Assembly: GCF_027887165.1 (NCBI RefSeq)
Contig: NC_077230.1
Coordinates: forward strand, 289,206,949-289,270,948
Direction: 5' to 3'
DNA: 64,000 nt
Source of the DNA: Monodelphis domestica
Lineage: Eukaryota
In this document: positions 1 through 55,800 of the stretch, piece by piece
Numbering within the stretch: position 1 is the first letter of the stretch
Layout: each line of letters starts with the position of its first letter
Program-made: the position numbers and the translations under genes
The notes under the pieces: generated by a model
Told to the model about the DNA's origin: nothing
What the model saw: the letters and a program-made list of their open reading frames with translations, nothing else
The model's database searches: none

Positions 1-55
1 GCTCTGTCTCTAGTCCATGAGAAGCAAAAAGTAAACATTATCAAGTTTGGTACAA
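1..55 (+). CDS. PARP4: PARP4 exon, 5'-truncated by the window edge (…ALSLVHEKQKVNIIKFGT + 1 nt), VWA-domain region; donor GTAAGT at 56
   Basis: In-frame translation matches the remembered human PARP4 'HALSLVGEKQKVNIIQFGTGYKELF'. The consensus donor gtaagt at 56-61 follows. Confidence 0.8.
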
Positions 56-13000: not shown

Positions 13001-13330
13001 GCTGTTTGAGCAAACTGGTCTTGATGGCCAGGCCAACACCGTGGATTCTGTCTTCATTTGAGGCTCTACCTTTCCAGAAGAAGGTGTATCCAATGGTGGG
13101 TTCGCTGAGTGATCCCTCTTCTGTTAAGTGTGTTTCGCTTAAGGCTGCGATGCCAATGTTATATCGTGCCAGTTCTTTACCGATTAGAGCTGTTCTTCTC
13201 TCAAGTCTTGGGGTATTCTCTCTATCAAGTAATGTCCTGATGTTCTATGCTCCTAGTAGGAGTTTCTTTGTATTTTTTCTTTGATTTTGACCGCTTAAAG
13301 GGGATGACCTGCCAGCCACAGTGTGCTGAC
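10021..13330 (-). mobile_element. RTE-type (BovB/RTE clade) non-LTR retrotransposon, roughly 3.3 kb. It has a single ORF with AP-endonuclease and reverse transcriptase domains, disrupted by frameshifts and stops
   Basis: Minus-strand ORFs at 12564-13013 and further upstream to about 13265 show endonuclease motifs: 'WNIRTL...IAALSETH', 'LILLGDFNTRVG' and 'WMHPQSKQWHLIDYIIVR'. ORFs at 11194-12303 and 10261-10995 show reverse transcriptase motifs: 'CGFRADRSTIDMVF', 'VFIDLTKAFDT' and the C-terminal 'ITNQEVLDRA...LRWSGHVIRM'. There is no ORF1. A 3' (ACT)n tail corresponds to + strand 'agtagtagtagt' at 10021-10032. CpGs are largely retained. Confidence 0.75.
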
Positions 13331-17038: not shown

Positions 17039-17720
17039 GTTTGTTCTTTCTGTGGAAAATATGTTCCTAAGAGTTTAACTCTTAGGTATTCTTTTTTAAA
17101 CTTAAAAAGCTAACAACATGTAAACTTAGGTAATCTGGATGAAGAAATAAATGTATTCATTAGTAAGAGTGATAGGAAGAATTATAGAATCATAGAATTT
17201 AGACTTAGAAAGAACTTTAGATATAATCTTATCCCAGAATAAAAGGACAACATGATGAAGAATATTCATCTATTTTTATGTCTTCAGAGAAAAGTAACAC
17301 TTTATTTTCTTCTATTATATTTTCATTTAAAAGGAAATCCAATGGAGAATCTGTAGCTATAAGACTAAGGTAACAACAAAAGCAAATGTAATATTAGGCT
17401 CCAGTGGTTCCAGGCTTCCAGGTAAACTTGGAAGAGCTCTTGTATGGAGATCATAAAGCCTGAGTTCAAATTCAATTTCTTATTTCCATGATCTTGAACA
17501 AGTCATCTAAGCTCTCTGTGCCTCATTTTTCTCATTTGTATGATGAGAAGGTTAGACAAGATCACCTTTAAAGTCCTTTCAAGTTCTGGATCTATGAGGC
17601 TATGCAAGGTTTTTATTATTGTAAAGACATTTCCCACTGGAATTCATGAACCTACAGATTTACAGATCTCCTGGCCTTACAGATGTCTATATAAAATAAA
17701 TGCTATCTTGAACCCTATAC

Positions 17721-18170
17721 CAGTAATGGTAAACCTTTTAGAAATGGTATGCCTTGCCCCTCCCCGCCACCTGCTGGGTATGCCCCGCTCCCCCTTACCC
17801 CACACAGGGGAGGGAGAAAGTTCTCCCATTGGGCTGCTGGTCAAAGGGGCATGTAAAGTGAAGAATATCCTCAGGTGCACATAGAGAGCTATGGGGGAGT
17901 GACCCAAGCACTCTGCTCCCCTCCAACTCTGCTGCCTGTGAACTGCCTACCTTACTCCCTTTGCACTCCCTTTGGACTGCTGGGCAGAGGGGCAGGGGAG
18001 GTGAAACAATGTCATCAGGCTCAGTGGAGATGGGGGAGGGGAGCAGCTTCACCCAAGTCCCTCTGCCTTTCTAGTAATGAACTCTGATGGGGGGAGGGGG
18101 TGACCATGTGCCCACAGAGAGAGCTCTATGTGCCATCTTTGCCATCCATGCCATAGGTTCCCCATCACAG
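17721..18170 (+). mobile_element. Non-autonomous hAT-like DNA transposon (MITE), copy 1, about 450 bp with degraded termini
   Basis: The termini are 'cagtaatggtaaacc' and 'ggttccccatcacag', diverged versions of the 15-bp terminal inverted repeat seen in copy 2. The internal sequence is about 75% identical to 52660-53095 along its full length. Confidence 0.6.
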
Positions 18171-18599
18171 ATGTATGCTATGGATAGGCAAAAGTTGCTT
18201 TTTAAGGAGAGTGATCCTAAGTTAACCTAACATTAAATTTGCCAAGCTTTTGGATGGATAAACTAATAAGTTATTTTCAAGATTTTCTAGTCTTATTTTT
18301 AAATTAGTCAACTTTCCTATCTGATTTTTATCAAAATTTTTCTTTTCTTTTCAATGTATAATTTATCAGACCAGTTAATAGTCTCCTAAGAGGTGGGTGA
18401 CATGGAGTCACCTATCTTATAAAAGTGAAAAAATGTAGAAGAAAACTTTAAGAATTATGTTTTATTTGTAATATTGATCCTAAAAATGTTTTCCCATATA
18501 TAATAATAAAACTTTCTACTTGAAGAGTATTTACAATTCAGAAAATATTTTCACATATATTCTTATTTAATTATCACAGCAACTCTGTTAAATAAATAA

Positions 18600-23290: not shown

Positions 23291-23945
23291 TTTTTTTTAA
23301 ATTTTATTTAATTAGTCAATTTAGAATATTTTTCCATGGTTACAAGAATCATATTCTTTCCCTAATGCTCCCCCCACCTCCTGTAGCCAATGCTTAGTTC
23401 CATTGGATTTTACATGTGTCCTTGATCAAAACCTATTTCCATAATATTGATGTTTGTACTAGGGTGATCATTTAGAGTCTACATCACCAATCCTATCCCC
23501 AATAACCCATGTGATCAAGCAGTTGTTTTTCTTCTGTGTTTCTACTACCACAGGTTTTCCTTTGAATATGGATAGTGTTCTTTCTCATAAATCCCTCCAA
23601 ATTGTTCTGGATCATTGCGTTGCTACTAATCGTGAAGTCCATTACATTCTATTTTACCACAGTGTATCAGTCTCTATGTATAGTGTTCTCCTGGTTCTGC
23701 TCCTTTCACTCTGCATCAATTCCTGGAGGTCATTCCAGTTCACATGAAATTCCTCCACTTTATTATTCCTTTGAGCACAATAGTATTCCATCACCAACAT
23801 ATACCACAATTTGTTCAGCCATTCTCCAATTGAGAGGCATCTCCTCATTTTCCAATTTTTTGCCATAACAAAGAGCTCAGCTATGAATATTCTTGTACAA
23901 ATCTTTTTCCTTATTATCAATTTGGGGTACAAAGAGAAGGTAAGT
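23291..23945 (-). mobile_element. L1 fragment (ORF2 C-terminus plus 3'UTR). Its poly(A) end starts 6 nt after the donor of the exon at 23159-23284
   Basis: The minus-strand ORF at 23654-23932 encodes '...[53 protein letters not shown]...'. The 3'UTR is homologous to the other L1 3' ends at 24760-25110, 35475-35815 and 45990-46250. The poly-T run is at 23291-23299. Confidence 0.8.
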
Positions 23946-25109: not shown

Positions 25110-28100
25110 TCAATTATACCACAGTGTATTAGTCTCTGTGTACAATGTTCTCCTGGTTCTGCTCCTCTCACTCTGCATCACTTCCTGGAGGTTGTTCCAG
25201 TCTCCATGGAACTCCTCCACTTTATTATTCCTTTTAGCACAATAGTATTCCATCACCAACATATACCACAATTTGCTCAGCCATTCCCCAATTGATGGGC
25301 ATCCCCTCGTTTTCCAGTTTTTGGCCACCACAAAGAGTGCAGCTATGAATATTTTTGTACAAGTCTTTTTGTCCATTATCTCTTTGGGGTACAGACCCAG
25401 CAGTGCTATGGCTGGATCAAAGGGTAGATATTCTTTTGTCGCCCTTTGGGCATAGTTCCAAATTGCCCTCCAGAATGGTTGGATCAGTTCACAACTCCAC
25501 CAGCAATGAATTAATGTCCCTACTTTGCCACATCCCCTCCAGCATTCATTACTTTCCTTTGCTGTTATGTTAGCCAATCTGCTAGGTGTGAGGTGATACC
25601 TCAGAGTTGTTTTAATTTGCATCTCTCTGATTATAAGAGATTTAGAACACTTCTTCATGTGCTTATTAATAGTTTTGATTTCTTTATCTGAGAACTGCCT
25701 ATCCATGACCCTTGCCCATTTATCAATTGGAGAATGGCTTGATTTTTTGTACAATTGATTTAGCTCTTTATAAATATGAGTAATTAAACCTTTGTCAGAG
25801 GTTTCTATGAAGATTTTTTCCCAATTTGTTGTTTCCCTTCTGATTTTAGTTACATTGGTTTTGTTTGTACAAAAGCTTTTTAGTTTGATGTAGTCAAAAT
25901 TATTTATTTTACATTTTGTGATTCTTTCTATGTCTTGCTTGGTTTTAAAGCCTTTCCCCTCCCAAAGGTCTGATATGTATACTATTCTGTGTTTACCCAA
26001 TTTACTTATGGTTTCCTTCTTTATGTTTAAGTCACTCACCCATTTTGAATTTATCTTGGTGTAGGGTGTGAGGTGTTGATCTATTCCTACTCTCTCCCAC
26101 ACTGTCTTCCAATTTTCCCAGCAGTTTTTATCGAATAGTGTATTTTTGTCCCAAAAGCTGGGATCTTTGGGTTTATCGTATACTGTCTTGCTGAGGTCTC
26201 TTTCCCCCAGTCTATTCCACTGATCTTCCTTTCTGTTTCTTAGCCAGTACCAAATTGTTTTGATGACTGCTGCTTTGTAATATAGTTTAATGTCAGGGAC
26301 TGCAAGGCCCCCATCATATGTGTTTTTTTTCATTATTTCCCTGGATATCCTTGATCTTTTGTTCTTCCAAATGAACTTTGTTATGGTTTTTTCTAAATCA
26401 GTGAAGAAGTATTTTGGGAGTTCAATGGGTATGGCACTAAATAGATAAATAAGTTTGGGTAGGATGGTCATTTTTATTATATTGGCTCGTCCTATCCATG
26501 AGCAGTTAATGTTTTTCCAATTGCTCAAGTCTAGTTTTATTTGTGTGGAGAGTGTTTTGTAGTTGTGTTCATATAGTTCCTGTGTTTGTCTCGGGAGGTA
26601 GATTCCTAGGTATTTTATTTTGTCTAAGGTGATTTTGAATGGGATTTCTCTTTCTAGTTCTTGCTGCTGAGCTGTGTTGGGGTTATATAGAAAAGCTGAT
26701 GACTTATGTGGGTTTATTTTGTATCCTGCAACTTTGCTAAAGTTGTTGATTATTTCAATTAGCTTTTTGGTTGAATCTCTAGGATTCTTTAAGTAGACCA
26801 TCATGTCATCTGCAAAGAGTGATAACTTGGTCTCCTCCTTGCCTATTTTGATGCCTTCAATTTCTTTTTCTTCTCTAATTGCTACTGCTAGTGTTTCTAG
26901 TACAATGTCAAATAGTAGAGGTGATAATGGGCATCCTTGTTTCACTCCTGATCTTATTGGGAATGCATCTAGTTTATCCCCATTGCAGATGATATTAGCT
27001 GATGGTTTTAGATATATACTGTTTATTATTTTTAGGAATGACCCTTCTATTCCTATGCTTTCTAGTGTTTTTAATAGGAATGGGTGTATTATTTTATCAA
27101 ATGCTTTTTCTGCGTCTATTGAGATAATCATGTGGTTCTTGCTGGTTTGCTTGTTGATGTGGTCAATTATGTGGATGGTTTTCCTAATGTTGAACCAGCC
27201 CTGCATCTCTGGTATAAATCCTACTTGATCATGGTGAATGATCCTTCTGATCACTTGCTGGAGTCTTTTTGCTAGTACCCTATTTAAGATTTTTGCATCT
27301 ATATTCATTAGGGAGATTGGTCTATAGTTTTCTTTCTCTGTTTTTGACCTGCCTGGTTTTGGAATCAGTACCATGTTTGTGTCGTAAAAGGAGTTTGGTA
27401 GAACTCCCTCTTTGCTTATTATGTCAAATAGTTTGTATAGTATTGGGATTAACTGTTCTCTGAATGTTTGATAGAATTCACTGGTGAATCCATCAGGCCC
27501 TGGGGATTTTTTCTTAGGAAGTTCTTTGATGGCTTGTTGGATTTCATTTTCTGATATGGGATTATTTAAGAATTCTATTTCCTCTTCTGTTAGTCTAGGC
27601 AGTTTGTATTTTTGTATATATTCATCCATATCTCCTAAATTGGTGTATTTATTGCCATATAATTGGGCAAAGTAATTTCTAATGATTGCCTTAATTTCCT
27701 CTTCATCGGAGGTGCTGTCCCCCTTTTCATCTTTAATGCTGTTAATTTGCTTTTCTTCCTTCCTTTTTTTAATTAGATTGACCAATACTTTGTCTATTTT
27801 GTTTGTTTTTTCAAAGTACCAGCTTCTTGTCTTATTTATTAAATCAATAGTTCTATCACTTTCGATTTTATTAATTTCTCCCTTAATTTTTAGGATTTCT
27901 AGTTTGGTTTTCTGCTGGGGGTTTTTAATTTGATCGCTTTTGAGTTTTTTCATTTGCATTTCCAATTGATTGATCTCTGCTCTCCCTAGTTTGTTAATAT
28001 AAGCATTCAGGGATATGAATTTACCTCTGATTACTGCTTTGGCTGCATCCCAAAAGGTTTGAAAGGATGTCTCGCCATTGTCATTTTCCTCGATGAAATT

Positions 28101-28910
28101 ATTAATTGTTTCTATGATTTCTTCTTTAACTAAACGGTTTTGGAGTATCATATTGTTTAATTTCCAATTGGTTTTAGATTTGGTTTTCCATGTACCATTA
28201 CTAATCATTATTTTTATTGCCTTGTGATCTGAGAAGGCTGCATTCATTATTTCTGCTTTTCTGCATTTGTGTGCTATGTTTCTGTGACCTAATGTATGGT
28301 CAATTTTTGTGAATGTGCCATGTGGTGCTGAGAAGAAGGTGTATTCCTTTTTTTCCCTATTTATTTTTCTCCATATGTCTATTAATTCTAATTTTTCTAA
28401 GATTTCATTCACTTCTTTTACCTCTTTCTTATTTATTTTTTGATTTGATTTATCTAAATTTGATAATGGTTGGTTTAAGTCTCCCACTAATATGGTTTTA
28501 CTGTCTATTTCTTCCTTCAATTCTCCTAGTTTCTCCATTAGAAATTTGGGTGCTATATTATTTGGTGCATACATGTTGATTAATGATATTTCCTCATTGT
28601 CTAAAGTCCCTTTTAACAAAATATAATTACCTTCCCTATCCCTTTTGATCAAGTCTATTTTTGCTTTGGCTTTATCAGATATCATGATTACCACTCCTGC
28701 CTTCTTTCTGTCAGTTGAGGCCCAGAAGGTCTTACTCCATCCTTTAATTCTGACCTTGTGGGTGTCAACCTGCCTCATGTGTGTTTCTTGAAGACAACAT
28801 ATGGTAGGGTTTTGGATTCTAATCCATTCTCCTATTCGTCTACATTTTATGGGTGAGTTCATCCCATTCACGTTCAAAGTTATGATTGTCAGTTGTGGAC
28901 TCCCTGGCAT
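25110..28910 (-). CDS. L1 ORF2 protein (endonuclease, reverse transcriptase and Cys-rich domain), 1266 aa, apparently intact
   Basis: Endonuclease N-terminus '[23 protein letters not shown]'; reverse transcriptase motifs '[10 protein letters not shown]' and '[10 protein letters not shown]'; C-terminal '[25 protein letters not shown]'. No internal stops. Confidence 0.9.
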
Positions 28911-29313
28911 TTTGATAGCCTTCCCTAATTCTAACCTTTTCTTCTTCGGCTCTACCTTTTAGTCCAGTGATTTACTTTGAATCAGTCCCCCTTGTCCCCT
29001 CCCTTGATGTTTCCCTTTTTAGTCCCTCCCTTTTTGTTCCCTCCCCCTCCCCCTTCTCTTTCCCTCCCTTTTTGTTTTCCCTCTCCCCCTCCCCCCCTTG
29101 GTTTCCCCTTCTCCCTACCCTTGTTGGGTAAGATAGAATTCAAGATCCCAATGGATCTGGATGTTTTTACCTCTCAGAGTTGATTTCCCTGAGATTGAGG
29201 TTTAAGTAAAAAACCCTCTCTTCCTCTCCTTCTTATAGGAGTTTTCTTCCCCTCCCCTTCCCATGTGAATCTTTGTGTGAGAAAGATTATTCTATTTGGT
29301 CTTTCTTTACCCC

Positions 29314-30408
29314 CTATATATACATTACATTTTCCCCACATGTTAGTATACATAGATTGATATAAATGTTGTCCTTATAGAAGAGAGTTTGAGTAAAAGA
29401 AGAAGATAACATTTTTCCCCTTTCCTTAATATTTACCTTTTCAGGTATTCCTTGCTCTTTGTTTTTCGGTATCAAACTTTCCACAGAGCTCTGGTCTTTT
29501 CTTTGCAAAAAGTTGGAAGTCTCTTCTATTTTGTTGAATGCCCATACTTTCCCTTGGAAGTATATAGTCAGTTTTGCTGGGTTTCTGATTCTTGGTTGAA
29601 GACCCAGCTCTCTTGCCTTTCTGAAGATCATGTTCCATGCCTTACGATCATTCAGAGTACAACTTGCAAGGTCTTGTGTGACCCTGATTGGCATTCCTTT
29701 ATATCTAAATTGTCTTTTTCTGGCTTCCTGTAGGATTTTTTCTTTTGTTTGATAGCTTTGGAATTTGGCAATTACATTCCTGGGAGTTGTCTTTTGGGGG
29801 TTTAGTGTAGAAGGTGTTCTGTGAGCTCTGTCAGTGGCTGTATTGCCCCCTTGTTCTAGAATCTCTGGGCAATTTTCTTTGATTATATCTTGTATCACCA
29901 TGTCGAGTTTGGTGTTTATTTCTGGCTTTTCTGGAAGTCCAATTATTCTTAAATTATCTCTTCTCCCTCTATTTTCCAGATCTGTCACCTTGTCAGTGAG
30001 ATATTTTATGTTCTCTTCTAATTTCTTGGTATTTTGGCTTTGCTTTATTAATTCTTGCTCTTTTACACGATCGTTGTCTTCCAGCTGCCTGATTCTGGCC
30101 TTTAAAGCCTGGTTTTCCTTTTCAGTTTCATCACACTGGTTTTGTAGATGCGTGAATTTCTTTTGCATTATTTCCCACTTTTCCTCCCAGAAGGCTTCCA
30201 TCTTTTTGGTCATTTCTGATTCAAATTCTTCATGGGTTTGTGGAGAGTTTCCATTTCCTTTGGAAGGTTTTGGAGCATTTTCTTGTATATCATCTTCTAT
30301 CTCCTCTGTATTTTGTATTTTGGCTCCATAGAATGTGTCCAAAGTCGCCCCTTTCTTCTTATTTTTCTTGGTATTTTGCGGCTTCTGTGCTTCTGTGGAG
30401 TTTGCCAT
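29314..30408 (-). CDS. L1 ORF1 protein. The likely start is MANSTEAQK at 30408. A 2-bp indel near the C-terminus shifts the frame, and the canonical ending continues in another frame to about 29441
   Basis: Coiled-coil and RRM-like segments are present: 'RRDNLRIIGLPE', 'ENCPEILEQ' and 'RVTQDLAS...KAWN.IFRKARELGLQPRI..PAKL'. After 'KVWAFNKIEE' the frame reads 'TSNFLQRKDQ...', whereas the alternate frame at 29441-29638 gives the canonical 'FQLFAKKRPELCGKFDTEKQRARNT*'. Confidence 0.7.
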   Translation of the reverse strand: MANSTEAQKPQNTKKNKKKGATLDTFYGAKIQNTEEIEDDIQENAPKPSKGNGNSPQTHEEFESEMTKKMEAFWEEKWEIMQKKFTHLQNQCDETEKENQALKARIRQLEDNDRVKEQELIKQSQNTKKLEENIKYLTDKVTDLENRGRRDNLRIIGLPEKPEINTKLDMVIQDIIKENCPEILEQGGNTATDRAHRTPSTLNPQKTTPRNVIAKFQSYQTKEKILQEARKRQFRYKGMPIRVTQDLASCTLNDRKAWNMIFRKARELGLQPRIRNPAKLTIYFQGKVWAFNKIEETSNFLQRKDQSSVESLIPKNKEQGIPEKVNIKERGKMLSSSFTQTLFYKDNIYINLCILTCGENVMYI

Positions 30409-30665
30409 CTCTGAATGTGGAGGATTAGCTTTTCTTATCTCTGTCTGATGTTCAGAGGCTTTAGTCCTGGGCAGATTGTCGGTTCTATGAGCTTTCCCTG
30501 GGTTAAATTGAGTATGCCTTCCGGCAATGACTTTCACTGGAACTGGAATGGAAGGGTCGGACCAGGGGGGCCACATTCTCCCGCGGCTCTATCTGCTTCC
30601 CTGCAGGGGTCGGGTTGCTTTCTGGAAGTTGCCTTCAGAATAGCTGGCCGTGAGGCTGTTTTGTT

Positions 30666-32060: not shown

Positions 32061-35000
32061 AGGAACCAAAGCTTGACAGGCCTCTGAGAGGGAGGGAACA
32101 GATAAATAGGAGCACTACTTCCTCTCTCAGGCAAAACTGCCTCAGAGAAAGTGAAATCGGATCTATGTCCAGAGCTGAAGGGTAAGAGGAAATCCCCTTC
32201 AATCTCTAGTTTCTGTTTTCTTTTCTGGATGAATATTATCTTGAACCCCTTAGTACACTTTGAAGAATGAGATGTTTAGTTCTTCTATAACTTATAAGAT
32301 CTATTTATCAGTTGGAGATTCAGGATTGGTAGATAAGGGAACAGGGAAGATAGGAAATCCCTATTCTATTTTCAACCTAAATTCCCTTTAGGGGTTGAGA
32401 GCTCAGGTCTGGGGACCTGGGTCCCTGAAGACCACTATGGAGTCAGACTGATGTAATTTCCTGATATAGAGATATAGTTTTTTAAAGATATGGATTGAAA
32501 ATCTTCTGGATGGATAGTCTCTTGCCTTCCCCAAATGGAAAAAGTCTCTATCCACCTCTTTTGATGAAAGATGGCTATCTGGGTCTCTTCAGATCAATTG
32601 AGGGATTATAGCAGGCTAAGCTCTGCAAAGTTGCTCTTTTCCCTCTCAGTTCAGAAGGGACAAGAACTCCTTTGCAACTGTTTCCCTACTTTTCTTGGCT
32701 GGAGATTCCAGTCCCATCCCCATCATCAGCCAAAGTTGCATTTCCTTCCTGCATGAGGTTTCCTTGCAAAATCAAGTCTTTGCAGTGTATTCTGTATCTC
32801 TCATCCACACCATCACCCACAAATTCACCACTTTTGTGTTTAAAAATTCTGAAATCCGCTAGAGACTGTACCAAGAGATCTGACAAAGCTCCAAGAGGGG
32901 AGACTGACAGCCCCAAAACCAAAACAAAATGAGAGGAGCAAGAGCACAGCCAAATACGGGGAGCAAAGAAGGGGTAAACTCAAGCAAACAACAGAAAAAG
33001 AAGAAAGAGACAGCTTCTGCACAGGTAAGGAGCAAAGAGCGAATGAAACAGAGGGGGAGGACCCAGCAGAGAAAAAATCAGAAATCCCAGCGAATTGGAT
33101 ACAGGCTTTGGAAGAACTCAAAATGCAATTCAAAACACAATTAAGAGAGGCTGAAGACAATTGGGAAAAGAACTTAAAAACTGAGATAAGTCATCTGGAA
33201 ACAGAAAATAGTGTCTTGAAAGCAAAAATCAACCAGCTGGAAAATGAGGCAAAGGAGATGAAAGATGAGGCAAAGCAGATGAAAGATGAGGTGAAGAAGA
33301 TGAAAGATAACCTCCAAAGAAAACCGACCAAAAGGAAAAGGACGACCAAAAAACTAAGGATGAAATCCAGTCTTTAAGAACCAGAATACAACAACTTGAA
33401 TCGAGCGACCTCACAAGGCAGCAAGACACTATAAAAGAAAACCAAAAGAATGAAAAAATTGAGGAAAATATGAAGCATCTCATTCACAAAACAGAGGATT
33501 TAGAAAATCATTCAAGGAGAGACAATTTAAGAATTATTGGCCTACCAGAAGACCATGACAAAAGAAAAAGCCTGGACATTATATTACAGGAAATTATTAA
33601 AGAAAACTGCCCCGAAATCCTTGAACAAGAGGGAAAAGTAGAGATTGATAGAATCCACAGATCACCTCCTGTACTTAATCCCCAACTGACAACACCCAGC
33701 AATGTTATAGCCAAATTCAAGAACTATAAGACCAAAGAAAAGATATTACAAGCTGCCAAGAAGAAGTCATTCAGATACCAAGGAACCACAGTGAGGATAA
33801 CTCAGGATCTGGCTGCATCCACACTGAAAAAAAGAAAGGCATGGAAGACGATATTCCGGAAAGCAAGGAAACTAGGTCTACAACCAAGAATCAACTACCC
33901 AGCAAAACTGACTATATTCTTACAGGGGAAAGTATGGTCATTCAACAAAATAGAAGAATTCCAAGAATTCGTAAAGAAAAGACCAGACCTGAACAGAAAA
34001 TTTGATGTCCAAGCACAGAACTCAAGAGAATCATCAAAAGGTAATTAAAAAAGAAGGGAAAAAAGAAAAACAAAAAAAATTTTTTAAGAGACTCAATAAG
34101 TTAAAATGATATGTATCCCTATAAGAAAAGAGGTCATTGGTAACTCTTAAAAACTGTTGTTATTAGCTGGGCAGCAAAAAGAAGTATACTTAGAGGGAAC
34201 AGCAACAAACTGTATAGGATGAAAGGACAAGACATAAATAGGTATATAGATATATGCATGCAAAAATACATACGCATGAGTATGCATATATATATATAAC
34301 TAGAGCTTAAAAATAGGTTAATATTAAAAGAAATGGGAAAAGAAACAAATGGAGGTAAATTTATATGTCATAAAGAAGCTCATGGTGGGAGGGGGGAGAA
34401 CATCAATACACTGAAAGGGTAAAGAGGTCAGAGATAGGAAATACTCAACTTTTACGTGCTTTGAAAGTGACTCAAAGAGGGAAAAACAATCCAATCCATT
34501 GGGGGCAGAGAATAGATTTGCACCCTATAGGGGAGTAGAAGGGTAACAAATGGTCTGGTGGGGAGGGAAGCAGTACAAGAGAGGGAGGGAGCGGGGGGTT
34601 AATTTTAGAAAGACTACAGGGAAAATAAGGGGGGGGATAAATAGGGAGGGGGGTAGAAAGGGAAGTAAAAAAAGAGTGGGAACAAGGGGGAATGTTCAAA
34701 AGCAAACATTGGTGTAGAAGGAAATAGTGAAAGAAGAAAAGGCAGGTAAAGGAGCAGAAATAAAAATGCTGGGAAATACACAGCTAGTAATCATAACTCT
34801 GAATGTGAATGGAATGAACTCACCCATAAAACGCAAGTGAATAGCAGAGTGGATTAGAGTCCAAAACCCTACCATATGCTGTCTACAAGGAACACATATG
34901 AGAAAGGTAGATACACATAGGGTGAAAGTAAGAGGGTGGAGCCAAATCTATTGGGCATCAACTGACAAAAAAAAGGAAAAAATGCAAAGAAAGGAGGACT

Positions 35001-37190
35001 TGCAGTCCCAGATCTCAAACTATACTATAAAGTAGTGGTTATCAAAATAATTTGGTACTGGCTAAGAGACAGAAAGGAGGATCAGTGGAATAGACTTGGA
35101 GTAAATGATCTCAGCAAGACAGTTTATGACAAACCCAAAGACCCCAGCTTTTGGGACAAAAATCTATTATTTGATAAAAACTGCTGGGAAACAAAGAGAT
35201 AATGGACAAAAAGACTTGTACAAACATATTCATAGCTGTGCTCTTTGTGGTGGCCAAAAACTGGAAAACGAGGGGATGCCCATCAATTGGGGAATGGCTG
35301 AGCAAATTGTGGTATATGTTGGTGATGGAATACTATTGTGCTAAAAGGAATAATAAAGTGGAGGAGTTCCATGGAGACTGGAACAACCTCCAGGAAGTGA
35401 TGCAGAGCGAGAGGAGCAGAACCAGGAGAACATTGTACACAGAGACTAATACACTGTGGTATAATCGAACGTAATGGACGTCTCCATTAATGATGGTGTA
35501 ATGTCCCTGAACAATTTGCAGGGATCCAGGAGAAAAAAACACTATTCATAAGCAAAGGATAAACTATGGGAGTGGAAACACTGAGGAAAAGCAACTGCCT
35601 GAATACAGCGGTTGAGGGGACATGACAGAGGAGAGACTCTAAATGAATACTCTAATGCAAATATTATCAACAAAGCAATGGGTTCAAATCAAGAAAACAT
35701 GTAATGCCCAGTGGATTCACGCGTCGGCTATGGGGGGTGGGGGGGAGGAAAAGAAAATGATCTATGTCTTTAACGAATAATGCTTGGAAATGATCAAATA
35801 AAATATATTAAAAAAAAACTGCTGGGAAAATTGGAAGACAGTGTGGGAGAGATTAGGTTTGGATCAACACCTCACATCCTACACCAAGATAAATTCAGAA
35901 TGGGTGAATGACTTGAACATAAAGAAGGAAACTATAAGTAAATTAGGTGAACACAGAATAGTATACCTGTTAGACCTTTGGGAAGGGAAAGATTTTAAAA
36001 CCAAGCAAGACTTAGAAAGAGTCACAAAATGTAAAATAAATAATTTTGACTACATCAAATTAAAAAGGTTTTGTACAAACAAAGCCAATGTAACTAGAAT
36101 CAGAAGGGTAGCAACAAATTGGGAAACAATCTTCATAAAAACCTCTGACAAAGGTTTAATTACTCAAATTTACAAAGAGCTAAATCAATTGTACAAAAAA
36201 TCAAGCCATTCTCCAATTGATAAATGGGCAAGGGACACGAACAGGCAGTTCTCAGCCAAAGAAATCAAAACTATTAATAAGCACATGAAAAAGTGCTCTA
36301 CATCTCTTATAGTCAGAGAGATGCAAATCAAAACAACTCTGAGGTATCACCTCACACCTAGCAGATTGGCTAACATAACAGCTATGGAAAGTAATGAATG
36401 CTGGAGGAGATGTGGCAAAGTAGGGACATTAATTCATTGCTGGTGGAGTTGTGAATTGATCCAACCATTCTGGAGGGCAATTTGGAACTATGACCAAAGG
36501 GCAATAAAAGACTGTCTGCCCTTTGATCCAGCCATAGCACTACTTGGTTTGTACCCCAAAGAGATAAGAAGGAAAAAGACTTGTACAAGAATATTCATAG
36601 CTGCACTCTTTGTGGTGGCCAAAAATTGGAAAATGAGGGGATGCCCTTCAATTGGGGAATAGCTGAACAAATTGTGGTATATGTTGGTGATGGAATACTA
36701 TTGTGCTAAAAGGAATAATAAAGTGGAGGAATTCCATGGAGACTGGAACAACCTCCAGGAAGTGATGCAGAGCGAGAGGAGCAGAACCAGGAGAACATTG
36801 TACACAGAGACTGATACACTGTGGTACAATCAAAGGTAATGGACTTCTCCATTAGTGGCAATGCAATGTCCCTGAACAATCTGCAGGGATCTAAAAAACA
36901 CTATCCACAAGCAGAAGATAAACTGTGGGAGTAAAAATACCTATGAAAAGCAACCGCCTGACTACAAGGTTGGAGGGGATATAACTGAGGAGAGACTCTA
37001 AGTGAACATTCTAATGCAAATACCAACAACATGGAAGTGGGTTTGAATCAAGAACACATGTGATACCCAGTGGAATTGCGCGTGGGCTATGGGAGAGGTG
37101 GTGGGAGGGAGGGGAGGGAAGAAAAGAAAATGATCTTTGTTTCCAATGAATAATGTTTGGAAATGACCAAATAAAAATTAAAAAAAAAAA
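32060..37190 (+). mobile_element. L1 element, sense to PARP4, with a degenerate ORF1, a large internal deletion in ORF2, and a nested L1 insertion
   Basis: ORF1 pieces at 32929-33144, 33108-33377 and 33470-34048 include 'RRDNLRIIGLPEDHDKRKSLDIILQEIIKENCPEILEQEG...'. The ORF2 endonuclease start '[14 protein letters not shown]' is at about 34800. At about 34985 the sequence jumps to the ORF2 region '...GGLAVPDLKLYYK'. The ORF2 C-terminal ORF at 35841-36662 is followed by a 3'UTR and poly(A) at about 37175-37190. The 5' boundary near 32060 is uncertain. Confidence 0.75.
35186..35818 (+). mobile_element. Nested 5'-truncated L1 insertion (ORF2 C-terminus 90 aa plus 3'UTR plus poly(A)) inside the host L1 ORF2, with a target-site duplication
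   Basis: The left flank '...aaaaactgctgggaaa|caaagag' and the right flank 'ttaaaaaaaaa|ctgctgggaaaattgg' share a 13-15 bp direct repeat. The host L1 ORF2 reading '...[17 protein letters not shown]' resumes exactly after the insertion. The inserted ORF at 35202-35474 is '[51 protein letters not shown]...'. Confidence 0.8.
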
Positions 37191-42480: not shown

Positions 42481-42913
42481 AATCAATAGAAAAGAAATGC
42501 TTATTAACTTGAAAATTAAAAGCAAAAAGCAAGAAAGGAAGAAGCAGCTGCTAAGAGAGGTAGAAGCAATTGCTTCTGGAACCATGACTATCAGTCCTGT
42601 GTGCAATTCCCACAGGAGAGGCTTGGCTGCTATCCTGTATTATTGTGTACTAAACTTATCCATATTGTACAAAGGATGACTAGATTATAATAATAACAGT
42701 TTAAAATCTTTAGGAAATCTTTAGTATCTTAATCATTTAGTGATATTAAAAAGATTGATTTATATATTATTCACCTTGTGTTTTTGATGCCTGTTGTCTT
42801 CATTTAAATTACTTTGGAAATCACCTCCTCAAATGTTCTTTAGTTGTTAAACTGCTTTAAAAACTAAACTCTTGTATTTTGTTCTGTTTTCCCTTTCTTA
42901 CATGAAATACCAG

Positions 42914-44350
42914 TTGAAACGATGTGCCAAAAGTTATCTTTCAACGGAGCAACATAATTTTATAGTTCCTCATAAAGATCCATCTGTATTTAAGTTAGAT
43001 TCAGAGAATGTTACTTTTGGGGACACTGTTCCTTGTTTGACAACATTTTCAGCACCACTTCATTTTCAAGACAGTCCAGAAAGAGAGTCTGAACTACAAT
43101 CAAGAGGGATAGATTACTCAGGAATAGATGAGGGAATAGAGGAAATGGAGGAAATGGATGGAATTCTTTTTTGTTCATTACAGATTACTCCTGGTACATC
43201 ACCAGAAACATCAGCAGATCTCTTCTTTGCTTCTGACCAGGATGGCCATTCCAAAGCAATAAATGTTGCTAAGAAAGATTCAGAGAAGGAAGTTTTATTT
43301 CATAAACATGAAAATCAAGATAGGAACTATGCAACCCGTTTCCTTCTTTCCTCTCCAGTTCCTCCCCCTCCTGTCCCTGTGGTTAATTCCTCAGGTTTAT
43401 TTGGTTCCTCCTTTGCTGCTCCTCATTCAGCCTTTGCCTTACCTACTACTACATTCCCTACTACTACTTTTATTCCTGCAAACTCTCTTTCTTCTCCTAC
43501 TTTAGACCAACTATCAGCTGACATTTTTCACTCTCCTCGTTCTCCTCGTTATCTTCCTCCTTTTTCTTTTTCTCGTACTAATCTTTCCTCTAATACTCCT
43601 CTATTTGGTCTTCCTCCTCCTCCTCCTCCTCCTCCTCTAGGTTCTGTTTCTATTGCTCCTCCTCCTCCTCTTCCAGGTTCTATTTCTCTTCCTCCTTCTC
43701 TTCTAGGTTCTGTTTCTATGTCTCCTCCTCCTCCTCTTCCAGGTTCTGGTCCTCTTCCTTCTCCTCCTCCTCCTCCTCTAGGTTCTGTTTCTATTACTCC
43801 TCCTCCTCCTCCTCTTCCGGGTTCTATTTCTCTTCCTCCTTCTCTTCTAGGTTCTGTTTCTATGTCTCCTCCTCCTCCTCTTCCAGGTTCTGGTCCTCTT
43901 CTTCCTCCTCTTCTAGGTTCTGTTTCTCTCCCTCCTCCTGCTCCTCTTTCAAGTTCTGGTCCTCTTCTTCCTCCTCTTCCAGGTTCTGTTCCTCCTCCTC
44001 CTCCTCTTTCAGGTTCTTTTCAGCTTTGTTCTAAATCTCAGTTAAATTCATTTGAGTTTCCAAGTAAAATGCATCAACCACCTTTAATACTTAAGGAGAG
44101 GTCTGATGGACCAAATGCCACTCCTCCAGATGTTAGTTTAGGAGATAAACCATTAATTTGGGAAAAAACAAAAAAGTTTGCATCAAGTCGTGGACCTATT
44201 TTTGGACTGAAAAAAGATGGACAACTGCCACGGCCCCACCAGCTTCTTCTTTCTCCATCCAGAGATGTTAGATCAGAAGCAGTGACTTCAGGTTTCTCAT
44301 TTAGAGAAAAGAATTCTGTAGAACAGAATGTTACCTCATCTGAAGCTAAG
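42914..44350 (+). CDS. PARP4: PARP4 giant exon (479 codons). Low-complexity, Ser/Pro-rich region with an expanded polyproline tandem repeat, ending ...NVTSSEAK
   Basis: Acceptor taccag|ttg at 42911-42913 and donor aag|gtaagg at 44351. A continuous ORF in phase with the flanking exons. Human PARP4 also has one very large, poorly conserved exon at this position. Confidence 0.8.
43600..44010 (+). repeat. PARP4: Coding tandem repeat inside the PARP4 giant exon. A unit of about 141 bp, built from about 45-bp sub-repeats, encodes polyproline motifs (PPPPLPGS(I/G)SLPPSLLGSVS...)
   Basis: 'ctaggttctgtttctatt(g/a)ctcctcctcctcc...' recurs at 43638 and 43779. A further partial unit begins at about 43915. 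Confidence 0.8.
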
Positions 44351-44440
44351 GTAAGGTGATGTGTTTTAGAAACAAATTTAGATAAGATCTGCATAAAGTA
44401 CATGAAAGTTTTCTTTACTGACTTTATCTTTGCCTTTCAG

Positions 44441-50524: not shown

Positions 50525-52394
50525 GTATGGTTTAAACAGAATTGAGTAATCAGTTGACCAACAGACATATACTAAATGCCTACTATGGGTCAAGAATGCT
50601 GCTAGTTGCTAGAAAAAACAAATATAAAGAATGAAACAATTGCTTCTTTCAAGAAGCAAGTCAATTTTATAATTAAACATTGATTAAAAAAAGCTTTCAG
50701 AAACTCTCCTTTAATTCCAAGTATCTAAATATCTCTGATAGAGAGGGATTTCTCATTTTCTCATATCTCCTGGAAGATATGTATTGTGACCATTGTTGAC
50801 CAAAGTAATGGTTGGGAGAAGTAATGCACTATAGGTGTAAGGGGTAAAAAAATATAGGTCAAGGTACATTTGTCCCCATCCTTTCCTCCTCCTGACACCT
50901 CTGTACTAAAAGACCTCTGAAAGACTTTCCAGATATAAATTTATGATATGATGGTTTGTCGAGAATAGAAGATTTTGAATTAGTGGTTGTGTTTCTACCC
51001 CTCCACTTCTAGCCACTCTATTCTTACTCTTTTCCACACTTCTAATCATAACACTATATTTAAGTATTATAAAATTTAAATAAGACTAGCAAGCTACATC
51101 TGTCTAGCTCATAGAATTTAGTGCAGTGCTAATTAATCACAAATAATCATCCTCTTTTCTTCCTCCCTGCTGTAAGGCCTTGAATGGTCTCCATTTGATG
51201 TAACTACTTCCTTATCTCCTATGCTCTCCTCAACCCCCTTATAATTTGGCTTCTGGTAAAAACCATTCTATAGAATCTACTTTGTCAAAAGGTATCATTG
51301 CCTTACTAATTGCCAAGTCCGGTGACCGTTTTTTAGTCCACATCCTTTTTGACCTCTTTGAATGACTAGTTGGCGCTCAATAAAAACATTTTAAGGAAAA
51401 AAAATCTGAATTATGTAATATTTTAAAACAATCAGGTGTATTGCTTTCAAGGACATGCAGCAGATGTAGTAAAAATGATTAAGTCAAGAAACATTGGCAA
51501 GTAGAGATCTTTTGGAAATGTGTTTCAATAAATGATTGGGAATTGGCACATACTATTGCACCATTACATGTACTATGCAAATGAGTGCTTGTACAGTCCT
51601 TGGAATCAATTTATCTCCTTAAGTAGGTGAAACATTTTTCTTATGTCTTATGTTATTGATTTAGCATGGTATTAGTTTAAAAAGTTCTAGATTTGACATA
51701 AGGAGAGACCTGTGTTAAAATGCTATCTCTCATAACTTATTGTTCTTTAGGACCATGAACAAGTCACGGAACCCTTCACAGGGTTATTTTAAGAATCGAT
51801 TGTGATGATGTGTGTAAAAGCAAAAGCAATTATATTAAAGCAGTATAGAAACAGAATATTGTAAAGTATAATCATTGTTTAAGAGTGTGCCCTTTTTAGA
51901 TTTCAGCAAAGTTTTAAGTCATAAATAATAAATAGTAAGGATAGAGATGGTAAGATGGAAGAGTGAAGCCTTTTCAAGTGCAAATAAAAAGTTTTACCCC
52001 TTCTAAGGTAAGGTACCCCTTCCAATTTGAGGTCAATTGCACATGAAAAGGACAGAATTGACAATGAACCCAGAACCAGAGAAGCTGGGGAGCTATCTTT
52101 CCCCCAGTCACTTATTTGTCTAGATTCAGGAATTTGGGAAACATCTATATGTGAGGGTTACCTTCAGGTGGAGCTAAGTCCTTTACCAAGGCTAGAGCAG
52201 GAAGAATTGTCAAACAGAAGCAGCTGCCCTGTGCCACCTCCTGACTGAGAGATGAAACCAAACTGAGGAACTGAAGCCCCAAAAGAGTAGAACCAGAATG
52301 GCTTCAGCCAGCAGCACTCTAGCTACAGAACACAGTAGCACCCAGGCAAGCCTTAGGCTGGGGACGCTAGAAACGAGTGCTGCCTATCAAAAAG

Positions 52395-52580
52395 TGAGCC
52401 TTGGTGGTACAGCTAAGTGGCTCAATGGATAGAGAGTCAGACGTGAAGATGGGAGGACCTGGGTTCAAATCTGACCTCAGATAACTTCCTAGCTGTGTGA
52501 CTCTGGGAAAGTCATTTTGCCTAGCCCTTACCACCCTTCTACCTTAGAAACAATAATATTGATTCTAAAATGGGAGGTAA
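52395..52580 (+). mobile_element. tRNA-derived/MIR-like SINE, immediately upstream of the hAT-like element
   Basis: 'ggtggtacagctaagtggctcaatggatagagagtcagacgtgaagatgggaggacctgggttcaaatctgacctcagataacttcctagctgtgtgactctgggaaagtcattttgcc'. Confidence 0.65.
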
Positions 52581-52659
52581 AAGTTTTTTGTTTTTTTTTT
52601 AAGTGACCCTAGGGGGTTTATTATATTGGCTCATCCAACAGAGATGCTATACCCTATGA

Positions 52660-53095
52660 CAGTGATGGTGAACCTTTTAGAGATGAAGTACTGGGCCCTG
52701 CCCCCCTCCAGACCAGGTCCTGTGCCCCTCTCCCACTATAAGTGCCAGGCATACCCCCCCTTACCCCACAGATGGGCTACTGGGTGGAGGGGCGGGTGAA
52801 ATAAGGAATGTTCTCAGCAAGTGTAGAGAGAGGGAGGGATTAGCCCCATCTCTCTGCTCCCTTCTAGCTCTGCTAGCTGTGAGCTGCCCACCTTACCCCT
52901 GTGTACTCCCATTGGCTGCTGGGCAGAGGAGTGGGGAATGTGAAAAAATGTCATCAGGCTCAGTGGAGAGGGAGAGGGAGAGGGGAGCAACTCTGCCTGA
53001 GTCCCTAGTAACCAACTCTGGGGGAAGGAGGAGCATTGCTCATGCCCACAGAGAGTGCCATCTTTGGCACCTGTGCGATAGGTTCACCATCACTG
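52660..53095 (+). mobile_element. Non-autonomous hAT-like DNA transposon (MITE), copy 2, 436 bp, with a perfect 15-bp terminal inverted repeat and an 8-bp target-site duplication
   Basis: The 5' terminus 'CAGTGATGGTGAACC' is the exact reverse complement of the 3' terminus 'ggttcaccatcactg'. The element is flanked by the direct repeat 'ccctatga' at 52652-52659 and 53096-53103. No coding capacity. Confidence 0.7.
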
Positions 53096-55800
53096 CCCTA
53101 TGAGGTGTAAGCCCCTCTGAGATCACTATGCAACTGAATTTCTGTGCCTTGGGGGAAGTCTTCTCCATCACCCATACCACATCCTTCAGTGACCTTCATG
53201 AGGCCTGAAGAGAAGGAGCATCATGCCCTGCATTTCCTGAATTCTGAATTGACCACAAGTGCCTTAATGCTATTGTACTTTAAGTCTGACTCTACTCTCT
53301 CCACCCCAGAATTCTGTATGTATTTGTGGGAGAGGTTGCTCCAGGTTTGAGAGTAAAGGAAGAAAATGCTCTGTAATTACTATTCTTGCTATGCCTAACT
53401 ATGCCTCCACCATTTTATATTTTTGGAGTTGAATTTTTGTTCCTAAGAGCAAGACTTTATATTTATCTTTATTGAATTTCATCAGCTAGATTCAGCCCAA
53501 TATTCTAGCCCTGTCAGGTTCCTTTTAGATCCTAATTATGTTATCCATTGTGTCAATTATTCTTCCCAGCTTTATGTCATCTACAAATTTGATGAGCACA
53601 CCATTTCTACCTTTATCTATGCCAAGTCATTGATAGAAATGTCAGACATCAGAGGCCAGACATAGTAGAGTACTCCACTAAAAACCACTAACAACTAACT
53701 CTGAGTCAGGCTGTGTGAGCAGATCTCAATCCTCTGATTATATTAATTTCTAGTCCCATGTTCTCCACAAAAATAGTATCAGAAGTGGTGCTAAAAATGT
53801 AGTAATTCTGTCAAGAAAGAAAATTAGGTCAACCTGCATGACTTGTTCTAGATGAAGCCATGCTGTTCTCTATAATTCCCTTTCTAAATGTTCACCGATT
53901 GTTCCATTCTATAATTTTCCCAGGATAGATGTCAAACTTGTTGGCCTAGAGTTTGTGGAGTGTTGGCATTACTTTTTGGAAAATCAGACTAATTGCCCTT
54001 TTCTGATCTTGTGCTACCTCTTCTATTTCCTGTGTTCTTTTGAATATTCCAGTGGCTCAATAATCATATCTACTAGTTCTTTTAGGACCCAAAGATGTAG
54101 TTTATCTGAGCCAGCTGACTTGAATTCACCAAATGCAGCTAGGTGCTCTCTTATTATAACCTTATTTATCTTTTGAAATGTACTTATTTCATGATTTACC
54201 AAAGCCTCTCCATACTTAGCCAGGTAGGTTCTCAGAAAACATAGTCTGTTCTTGGACAACATACCAGACCTTTCCAGCATGATGGAACCAAACAGAACTT
54301 AGCTTTGCTGGCATAAATTTCAAGAATCCTGGTTTCAGCTCTATTCTACAATGAAGCACTAAGTAGGACTTTGTGGAGATTGAACAGTACAAAACAATGC
54401 CAAAAGAAAAAAAAGTAAAGTATAGAATAGAAAAATTTAATATTTTTAAATTCTTATGACATGAAGTCTTGCTCAAAGCAAAGCAAAACTTTCAATACAA
54501 TTTGTATCCAAGCCTACTCTTTAAGGAAATCCTCGGTACTCTTCACTGTTCTCTTCTAAACACAATGTTATTAGACATTCCATTCTTTATATTAGGAAGG
54601 CAGTAGAATAAAACACAAATAATCCTTTCTTATTGTTTTAGGCAACCAAAATCAGGGTGAACTTTTAAAATATCTTCTTAGAGATTTTGAGCATTGTTTT
54701 TAGGGAAATGTTTTCTACTTTTCAAAATCACGACTCTTAATTACCAAATACTTAGTAGTGACTAATATATACCTAGCTATGAAAAATACAAAAATACAAA
54801 GAAAAAATGGTATAAGCTAGGAACATTGCCTTCATAATAATTAGCACTTACAGTTTTAAGGTCTGTAAAGTGCTTTGCAAATATCACAACAACCCAGGGA
54901 GATAAGTATTATTATTATCCTCATTCTACAAAAGAGGAAACTTGGGCAAAAAGAGATAAAATCACTTGCCTAGTAAGTGTCTAAAATAGGATTTGAACTC
55001 AGAACCTCCTGACTTCAGCTCTAACACTTTATTGCAACACCAAGCTGCTTCTATTCATTTGCAGGTAGGGAGACAGAGTTAACAGACGAAATAGCTCATA
55101 ATAATAATAATAATATATTTCCATAATACTTTTAAGTTTGTAAAGTATTTAGCAGACATTTCTCACAACAATATTGTGAGGTACATGATGCAGACTTTAC
55201 CCCTATTTATAGATGAAATTGACACTTGAGAGATTAAGTGCTTACCCCAGTCATATAGCTAACAATTCTCTGAGGCTGGATTTGAATACAGCTCTATGAC
55301 TGCAGATGTAGCACATTACCAATAACCATATTTCCTCTCTAGTAAACCATCTTTAAATGTTAGCTTGTTATTTTAGTTTGAATTACAGTGTGAATTTAGG
55401 TAAAGGAGGAAGTCAATATAGGCTCGAACATTCTGGGAAAGATTAACAGAGAAGGTATTTTTTGAGTTTTGGCCTTGAGTTATTTGAAATGGGTAGGATA
55501 TGAGGAAAGGAAAAGATCTTGGAAGGGTGCTCTGGGCAATGATAATAGATATAGGAATAAGAAGGACTATGCTAGGAATAAGACCTAAACGTGCAAGCAT
55601 CTTTGTTATTAGGAAAGGATATGAAAAATAGGCAAAAGAATTTGGTTATTTGCTTGGAAATAGTACTTTCAACTAGATGTTTTTGTTAAATGTATAAACA
55701 GTATTCCTAATGCTTTCATTTCATATGCTTTCTTGTAAGCCATAAGCCTGGCTTCATGTATAGCCAGATATAAAGGTCTAACAGTCCCATTTATTCTTAG

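Follow-up and report, generated by a model that had tools for sequence, protein, structure and literature searches.

Two diverged copies of a short transposon, very probably non-autonomous and of hAT-HT1 type, in a 64-kb window of the Monodelphis domestica genome

Introduction

The stretch of Monodelphis domestica DNA analysed here (64,000 nucleotides of contig NC_077230.1, assembly GCF_027887165.1, positions 289,206,949 to 289,270,948 of the forward strand; hereafter the window, with positions counted from its first letter) contains a short, sharply bounded element, copy A, and a diverged relative, copy B, about 35 kb away. What kind of element is this, and to which lineage does it belong? 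An earlier note, made from the letters of the window alone, had proposed a MITE (a miniature transposable element with inverted repeats) from the hAT family. Our analysis indicates that copies A and B very probably represent a hAT transposon that is non-autonomous and of the hAT-HT1 type. Interspersed repeats of this kind are known, and the lineage type has already been published in lizards.

Structure of the element

Copy A is 436 bp long, as the earlier note had it and as the coordinates 52660-53095 bear out. It is bounded by a perfect 16-bp terminal inverted repeat (TIR), CAGTGATGGTGAACCT, and flanked by a perfect 8-bp target-site duplication (TSD), CCCTATGA. The note had described a perfect inverted repeat of 15 bp; its perfection stands and its length does not. 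The first 15 bases (52660-52674, CAGTGATGGTGAACC) recur as the exact reverse complement at 53081-53095, and the full repeat occupies 52660-52675 and 53080-53095. The flanking duplication was likewise recovered as claimed, with ccctatga read identically on both sides of the element. The termini start with CAGTG and end with CACTG, in agreement with the YARNG terminal motif stated for hAT elements (PMC3014272), and the TSD has TA at positions 4-5, the centre of the target.

The interior is non-coding and G/C-rich, as had also been reported: no open reading frame (ORF) exceeds 74 amino acids, and the GC content of the element is 56% as against 37.5% for the window. The observed/expected ratio of CpG is 0.06 (0.14 for the window). 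Copy A is not a long hairpin, and predicted structure is weak outside the 16-bp terminal pairing.

Assignment to the hAT-HT1 type

The TIR of copy A, CAGTGATGGTGAACCT, agrees with that of hAT-HT1, CAGTGATGGSSAACCT, at 15 of 16 positions; the single mismatch is a T where C or G (S) is expected, and it lies at a CpG, in DNA from which CpG has nearly vanished. In the lizard Anolis carolinensis, hAT-HT1_AC is a 2968-bp element with an 8-bp duplication and this 16-bp repeat, and hAT-HT1N1_AC is its 585-bp non-autonomous derivative, with the target NTCTAGAN (Novick et al.; PMC3014272, Table 1). The family is described as one of four Anolis hAT families gained by horizontal transfer (PMC3014272). The window copies resemble the lizard elements in an 8-bp duplication whose core is CTA (NTCTAGAN compared with CCCTATGA here) and in the pattern by which short non-coding derivatives far outnumber the autonomous form. 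They differ in host, in the one repeat position just described (T for C/G at a CpG) and in length, with 436-450 bp here versus 585 bp for hAT-HT1N1_AC.

SPIN and OC1 (OposCharlie1), the hAT families best known from marsupials, were also considered as parent families. Both are horizontally transferred and have been reported in tetrapods that include the opossum and the Tasmanian devil; both show 8-bp duplications and 16-bp repeats starting with CAG, and both have miniature derivatives in abundance. The SPIN repeat CAGYGGTTCTCAACCT (PMC3014272) and the OC1_Das repeat CAGGGGTCCTCAAACT nevertheless differ from CAGTGATGGTGAACCT, and the window element is neither.

The earlier identification as a hAT-family MITE is therefore upheld by the 8-bp duplication, the CAGTG repeat, the central TA, the non-coding interior and a second copy that ends at the termini. 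It is strengthened, beyond structure, by a 16-bp repeat of the hAT-HT1 type and by ends that are homologous to those of a transposase-bearing family.

Related elements in metagenome contigs

Neither a 22-mer from the left end nor a 23-mer from the interior had a match in viral, metagenome and prokaryote-genome collections. When the metagenome collection was scanned with a relaxed 18-mer query, CAGTGATGGYGAACCTWT, at least 120 loci were obtained (L001-L120). Among the matches listed, at least 70 loci carry one of two conserved family ends, here called the 'TATGG' end (CAGTGATGGCGAACCTATGGCACGCGTGCCAGAGGTGGCACGCACAGCCCTCTCTGTGGGCACGCG...) and the 'TTTTA' end (CAGTGATGGCGAACCTTTTATAGACCGAGTGCCTAAACGGCAACCC...). 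The asymmetry that follows the 16-bp repeat, with CCTATGG at one end and CCTTTTA at the other, is present in the metagenome elements and in the window copies. The source metagenomes are mainly five (JGI24021J15306, JGI24022J15233, JGI24158J21664, JGI24159J19872 and Ga0210059). Because the contigs with family ends have a GC content of 40% and a CpG observed/expected ratio of 0.79, they represent the DNA of a eukaryotic host without CpG depletion, probably an invertebrate.

Both ends of the window copies align with this family. The last 131 nt of copy B match the TATGG end with 73-74% identity (E = 2e-15), and the last 59-68 nt of copy A match the same end in many family elements with 72-77% identity (best E = 1e-11; about 76% over the last 68 nt). 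At the other side, both copies match the TTTTA end over their initial 24-36 nt; in copy A, bases 1-24 are 92-96% identical to family elements, and similarity reaches approximately base 36. At the CpG positions of the family consensus, about one third of the aligned window-copy bases show C>T or G>A.

Elements with paired termini number 23 among the matches listed, with lengths of 341-3694 bp. Their flanking 8-bp duplications match at all eight positions in 10 cases and at seven in another 6 (16/23). These elements share with the window copies the same 16-bp repeat, subterminal regions that are homologous over about 130 nt at one end and about 35 nt at the other, and 8-bp duplications. They differ in size, being 1.1-3.7 kb long apart from one 341-bp and one 486-bp miniature, in interiors that are unrelated to that of the window element, and in a host that is not CpG-depleted.

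The longest of them, L044:1278-4971 (3694 bp, duplication CCTTAGTC; the same locus recurs as L100), contains frame-shifted, decayed pieces of a hAT transposase, encoded on the strand whose reading direction runs inward from the TATGG end. The joined pieces give 166 protein matches (best E = 1e-50), of which the named ones are GTF2IRD2-like or FAM200-like hAT-derived proteins, and precomputed Pfam assignments for the matched proteins comprise PF14291, PF27073, PF27046 and some PF05699. A direct Pfam scan of the L044 pieces returned nothing significant. Since the L044 transposase reads from the TATGG end, which is the right-hand end of copy A, this is probably the canonical 5' end of the family, and both window copies are then reversed, on the minus strand.

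Several other loci came up in these searches. L095:563-1048, L085:422-762 and L049 (metagenomes Ga0181449, Ga0181464 and Ga0302173) carry miniature elements with the same 16-bp repeat and the TATG/TTTT asymmetry, together with a different subterminal sequence containing the motif GACCCAC/GTGGGTC; the 486-bp miniature in this group has a perfect TTCTAGAT duplication. These features suggest a sister subfamily in another host. A better-preserved hAT transposase fragment (...GIQLDESTDISSESQMMVFCRF...) was seen in L086 at about 1-600 (minus strand), at the contig edge and outside the repeat-bounded element, and it probably belongs to another hAT family of the same metagenome host. The loci with the best protein matches, L121 and L122 (Pycnogonum litorale), are without this terminal repeat and were set aside as other hAT families.

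Relation of the two copies

The second copy, which the earlier note had placed at 17721-18170, is confirmed by BLASTN with E = 1e-43. Its identity to copy A is somewhat lower than the roughly 75% that had been given: the global alignment yields 71% over 424 aligned bases, with a Kimura two-parameter (K2P) distance of 0.375, and 78% in the central 200 alignment columns. The termini of copy B, CAGTAATGGTAAACC and CTGTGATGGGGAACC, are indeed mutated, with 2 mismatches each. An interior of approximately 290 bp is common to both copies and includes an internal direct repeat, with units of about 70-77 nt at a spacing of about 140 nt. The alignment score of this repeat is 31 in copy A (maximum of 25 in 300 shuffles) and 50 in copy B (maximum of 23 in 300 shuffles). 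That the two copies have interior and direct repeat in common argues that the non-coding form itself has multiplied. Their flanks, compared over 300 bp on each side, are unrelated, and homology ends at the termini; copies A and B are thus separate insertions that arose in two independent events, and not a segmental duplication. The coordinates of all parts are collected in Table 1.

Table 1. Positions of copy A, copy B and their component parts in the window
Feature	Position	Strand	Remarks
Copy A, left TSD, CCCTATGA	52652..52659	.	Identical to 53096-53103
Copy A, 436-bp element, very probably non-autonomous hAT	52660..53095	-	Probable canonical orientation
Copy A, left 16-bp TIR, CAGTGATGGTGAACCT	52660..52675	+	Perfect complement of 53080-53095
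Copy A, left subterminal stretch	52676..52695	+	Homologous to family 'TTTTA' end
Copy A, internal direct repeat unit 1	52772..52836	+	Aligns to 52911-52980
Copy A, internal direct repeat unit 2	52911..52980	+	Aligns to 52772-52836
Copy A, right subterminal stretch	53037..53079	-	Homologous to family 'TATGG' end; GGCAC-type motifs
Copy A, right 16-bp TIR	53080..53095	-	
Copy A, right TSD, CCCTATGA	53096..53103	.	Direct reading
Copy B, left flank, CCCTATAC	17713..17720	.	Possible decayed duplication
Copy B, 450 bp, apparently an older or diverged family member	17721..18170	-	71% identical to copy A
Copy B, left terminus, CAGTAATGGTAAACC	17721..17735	+	2 mismatches
Copy B, internal direct repeat unit 1	17823..17899	+	Aligns to 17966-18038
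Copy B, internal direct repeat unit 2	17966..18038	+	Aligns to 17823-17899
Copy B, right subterminal region and terminus	18039..18168	-	Homologous to family 'TATGG' end
Copy B, right flank, ATGTATGC	18171..18178	.	Possible decayed duplication

The condition of the termini bears on the age of the copies. All 48 bases of repeats and duplications in copy A are intact, and requiring exp(-48d) >= 0.05 limits the per-site divergence d since its insertion to at most about 0.06. Copy A appears to have been inserted well after the sequences of A and B split, since its termini and duplication are intact despite the K2P distance of 0.375 between the copies. Copy B may be an older insertion, or else a member of an older subfamily. 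We infer the labels 'younger' and 'older' from intact versus decayed termini in two copies.

Target preference

The 8 nt outside 66 non-redundant termini, among the matches listed, give the target logo NYMTAGRN; in 51 of them positions 4-5 are TA. The target is weakly palindromic with a central TA (nTnTAnAn-like), and the preference at which the earlier note had hinted is therefore visible in the family as a whole. The duplication of copy A, read on the bottom strand as TCATAGGG, fits every specified position of this logo. Both flanks of copy B retain the central TA and most of the family target consensus. Since the left flank of copy B and the duplication of copy A both keep this consensus, most of the likeness between them is explained.

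The 7-mer ATGCTAT is found at 52644-52650, 17700-17706 and 18175-18181, so that each copy has one 10-21 nt upstream and copy B has another 5 nt downstream. This strand of the window contains the 7-mer 14 times in all, and two random sites would share such a 7-mer in about 2% of cases. Its presence near both copies is probably a coincidence, for which the 8-bp target preference does not account.

Subterminal motifs and proposed mechanism

GGCAC occurs more often than any other 5-mer in the subterminal 94 nt at both family ends. Counted from the TATGG end it lies at 19, 37 and 59 nt, and the opposite end has it inverted at 29 and 70 nt. In copy B, GGCA[CT] is present at 19, 37 and 59 nt from the end, as in the family consensus. 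In copy A the motif lies 37 and 50 nt from the end, so that two of the sites are kept and one of them is shifted by a 9-nt deletion. The Hermes transposase binds subterminal GTGGC repeats, which are close to GGCAC, and by analogy the GGCAC motifs are putative transposase-binding sites.

In Hermes, Ac and hobo, the experimentally studied hAT transposons, a DDE transposase acts on short inverted repeats and cuts the target with an 8-bp stagger; the chemistry proposed here would be taken over from these systems. The family would derive from, and depend on, a hAT element of hAT-HT1 type that encodes a transposase. A hAT transposase produced outside these copies would bind the 16-bp TIRs, and probably the subterminal GGCAC motifs too, and would cut the element out as double-stranded DNA. 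The element would then enter a staggered 8-bp cut at a target resembling NYMTAGRN, and repair of the stagger would leave the 8-bp duplication. Neither A nor B is mobile by itself; both would be moved in trans by cut-and-paste transposition. The likeness to Hermes, Ac and hobo lies in the expected mechanism and in short subterminal repeats, putatively for binding; by contrast, the termini have no sequence relationship to theirs, and the transposase clade here is Charlie/GTF2IRD2-like. A transposition assay for this family was not found in the literature.

Alternative explanations

A handful of observations weigh against the assignment to the hAT-HT1 type. The family members within the window are two copies only, and neither further fragments of the family nor a transposase remnant of this hAT clade was found in the 64 kb. 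The flanks of copy B, ccctatac and atgtatgc, share 4 of 8 positions, and no duplication is recognisable in them. The related elements, with the decayed transposase-bearing L044 among them, all derive from metagenome contigs and not from the source genome, and the interior of approximately 290 bp has no match in the metagenome family elements recovered. Finally, the link to hAT-HT1 by name is drawn from the 16-bp repeat and the type of TSD. With only two copies seen, one might take A and B for one-off deletion remnants of full-length hAT elements, or for products of a segmental duplication. We consider this unlikely: two independent deletions would not give a common interior with the same internal direct repeat, and a segmental duplication would not leave flanks that are unrelated beyond a few bases. 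That the inverted and direct repeats met by coincidence in non-repetitive DNA is a negligible prospect. Short repeats do arise randomly, and the window has several spurious ones of 8-10 nt. We simulated 100 Markov-1 sequences with the composition of the window and counted perfect inverted-repeat pairs of at least 15 bp spaced 50-2000 bp apart. There were 0.3 such pairs per sequence on average, and none of the 100 simulated windows combined a pair with an 8-bp flanking duplication. Because the simulation never produced this combination and because homologues exist, in the form of a second copy in the window and of dozens of related elements elsewhere with the same kind of ends, chance is excluded. 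The real window has two such inverted-repeat pairs, copy A and 23817/25739; the latter was rejected as a set of transposon termini, since it consists of two inverted L1 pieces without a duplication. Terminus-like sites at 10941, 31368 and 39396 have no family homology and were dismissed as chance matches.

A hAT transposon also has to be distinguished from other mobile elements and from a sequence in the service of the host. CAGT-initial repeats occur in some Tc1/mariner families as well, such as the TcMar-N families CAGTAGAG... and CAGTGTTC... (PMC3014272, Table 1). A miniature element of Tc1/mariner, PIF/Harbinger or piggyBac, or a solo long terminal repeat (LTR) of a retroelement, is nonetheless very improbable. 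The duplication is 8 bp long, and not TA, TWA/TTA, TTAA or the 4-6 bp of the LTR type; the termini are CAG...CTG rather than TG...CA; and the related 3.7-kb element has transposase remnants of the hAT type, not of mariner or PIF. The element showed none of the marks of membership in an LTR retroelement (TG...CA ends, a 4-6-bp duplication, embedding), and the homology between A and B stops exactly at the termini. It could further be argued that the element now serves the host as a regulatory module, a structured RNA or a microRNA precursor, and that copy A is intact for this reason. The single-stranded DNA fold is somewhat better than that of shuffled sequences (z = -2.26), the interior is GC-rich with G-runs, and the same region has a long proline-rich ORF at 42872-44359. 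The 16-bp terminal pairing, however, dominates the fold, whose centroid structure is nearly empty; the element has no Rfam match close to threshold; copy B has decayed at about the neutral rate (K2P 0.375); and the CpG observed/expected ratio of 0.06 is that of unconstrained methylated DNA. A host function is consequently quite improbable, and a non-autonomous hAT element is the preferred explanation.

Other features of the window

The surroundings are rich in other repeats. Just upstream of copy A, at approximately 52390-52600, lies a tRNA-related, CORE-SINE-like repeat (...GGCTCAATGGATAGAGAGTCAGACGTGAAGATGGGAGGACCTGGGTTCAAATCTGACCTCAGA...), which we take to resemble the short interspersed elements (SINEs) of the marsupial MAR1/WSINE type. 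A full-length L1 occupies 25110-30576 (minus strand), with both reading frames open. Its ORF2 encodes 1266 aa with endonuclease and reverse transcriptase (Pfam E = 2e-44) and its ORF1 encodes 420 aa with an L1 RBD-like domain, and from its sequence this L1 could be retrotransposition-competent. No record of the exact ORF2 product was present in the gene-position collection. Together with the CORE-SINE-like repeat, the 37.5% GC of the window and its CpG observed/expected ratio of 0.14, the full-length L1 suggests marsupial, possibly opossum, DNA. A short inverted L1 piece at 23817-23833 forms a 17-bp inverted repeat with 25723-25739 in the full-length L1, without a duplication. Another L1, at 33470-36662 (plus strand), is broken and oppositely oriented, with an ORF1 fragment at 33470-34048 and a C-terminal ORF2 fragment at 35841-36662.

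The block at 10261-13013 (minus strand) is GC-rich (about 50% versus 35% around it) and contains three adjacent ORFs of a different non-LTR retrotransposon, with Pfam matches to reverse transcriptase (E = 9e-16) and endonuclease (E = 1e-4). The proline-rich frame at 42872-44359 (plus strand) is open over 495 aa and consists of repeated units (PPPPLPGS...). It has no Pfam match, and protein searches returned no homologue; it represents an exon, unannotated or lineage-specific, or else a frame held open by a CCN-rich repeat.

Host range and significance

Exact 15-mers of the terminus, searched for in the literature, matched only a microsatellite primer of Natrix maura. This primer, ACCAGTGATGGCGAACCTTT, contains the terminus and the next three bases of the left end in the window, which is suggestive of a snake as a probable further host. 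Because L049, L085 and L095 carry the repeat and the asymmetry of the lineage, more than one further host appears to harbour it. An occurrence across a lizard, a probable snake, this genome and probable invertebrates is consistent with the horizontal transfer proposed for hAT-HT1. We regard it as possible, if somewhat doubtful, that the two copies record, in a marsupial-like genome, the hAT lineage of Anolis, probably of a snake and of at least two probably invertebrate metagenome hosts.

Taken alone, the element matters little. Interspersed repeats of this standard sort would be masked by a repeat library, and it should not be taken for a gene or a regulatory feature. Its uses would be modest, as a dating marker or in presence/absence phylogenetics, and it extends by one entry what is known of the hosts of hAT-HT1-type elements. 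If the broader host record is true, the network of hAT transfers across phyla would gain a node through these copies, and the intactness of copy A would speak for relatively late activity of the miniature derivative.

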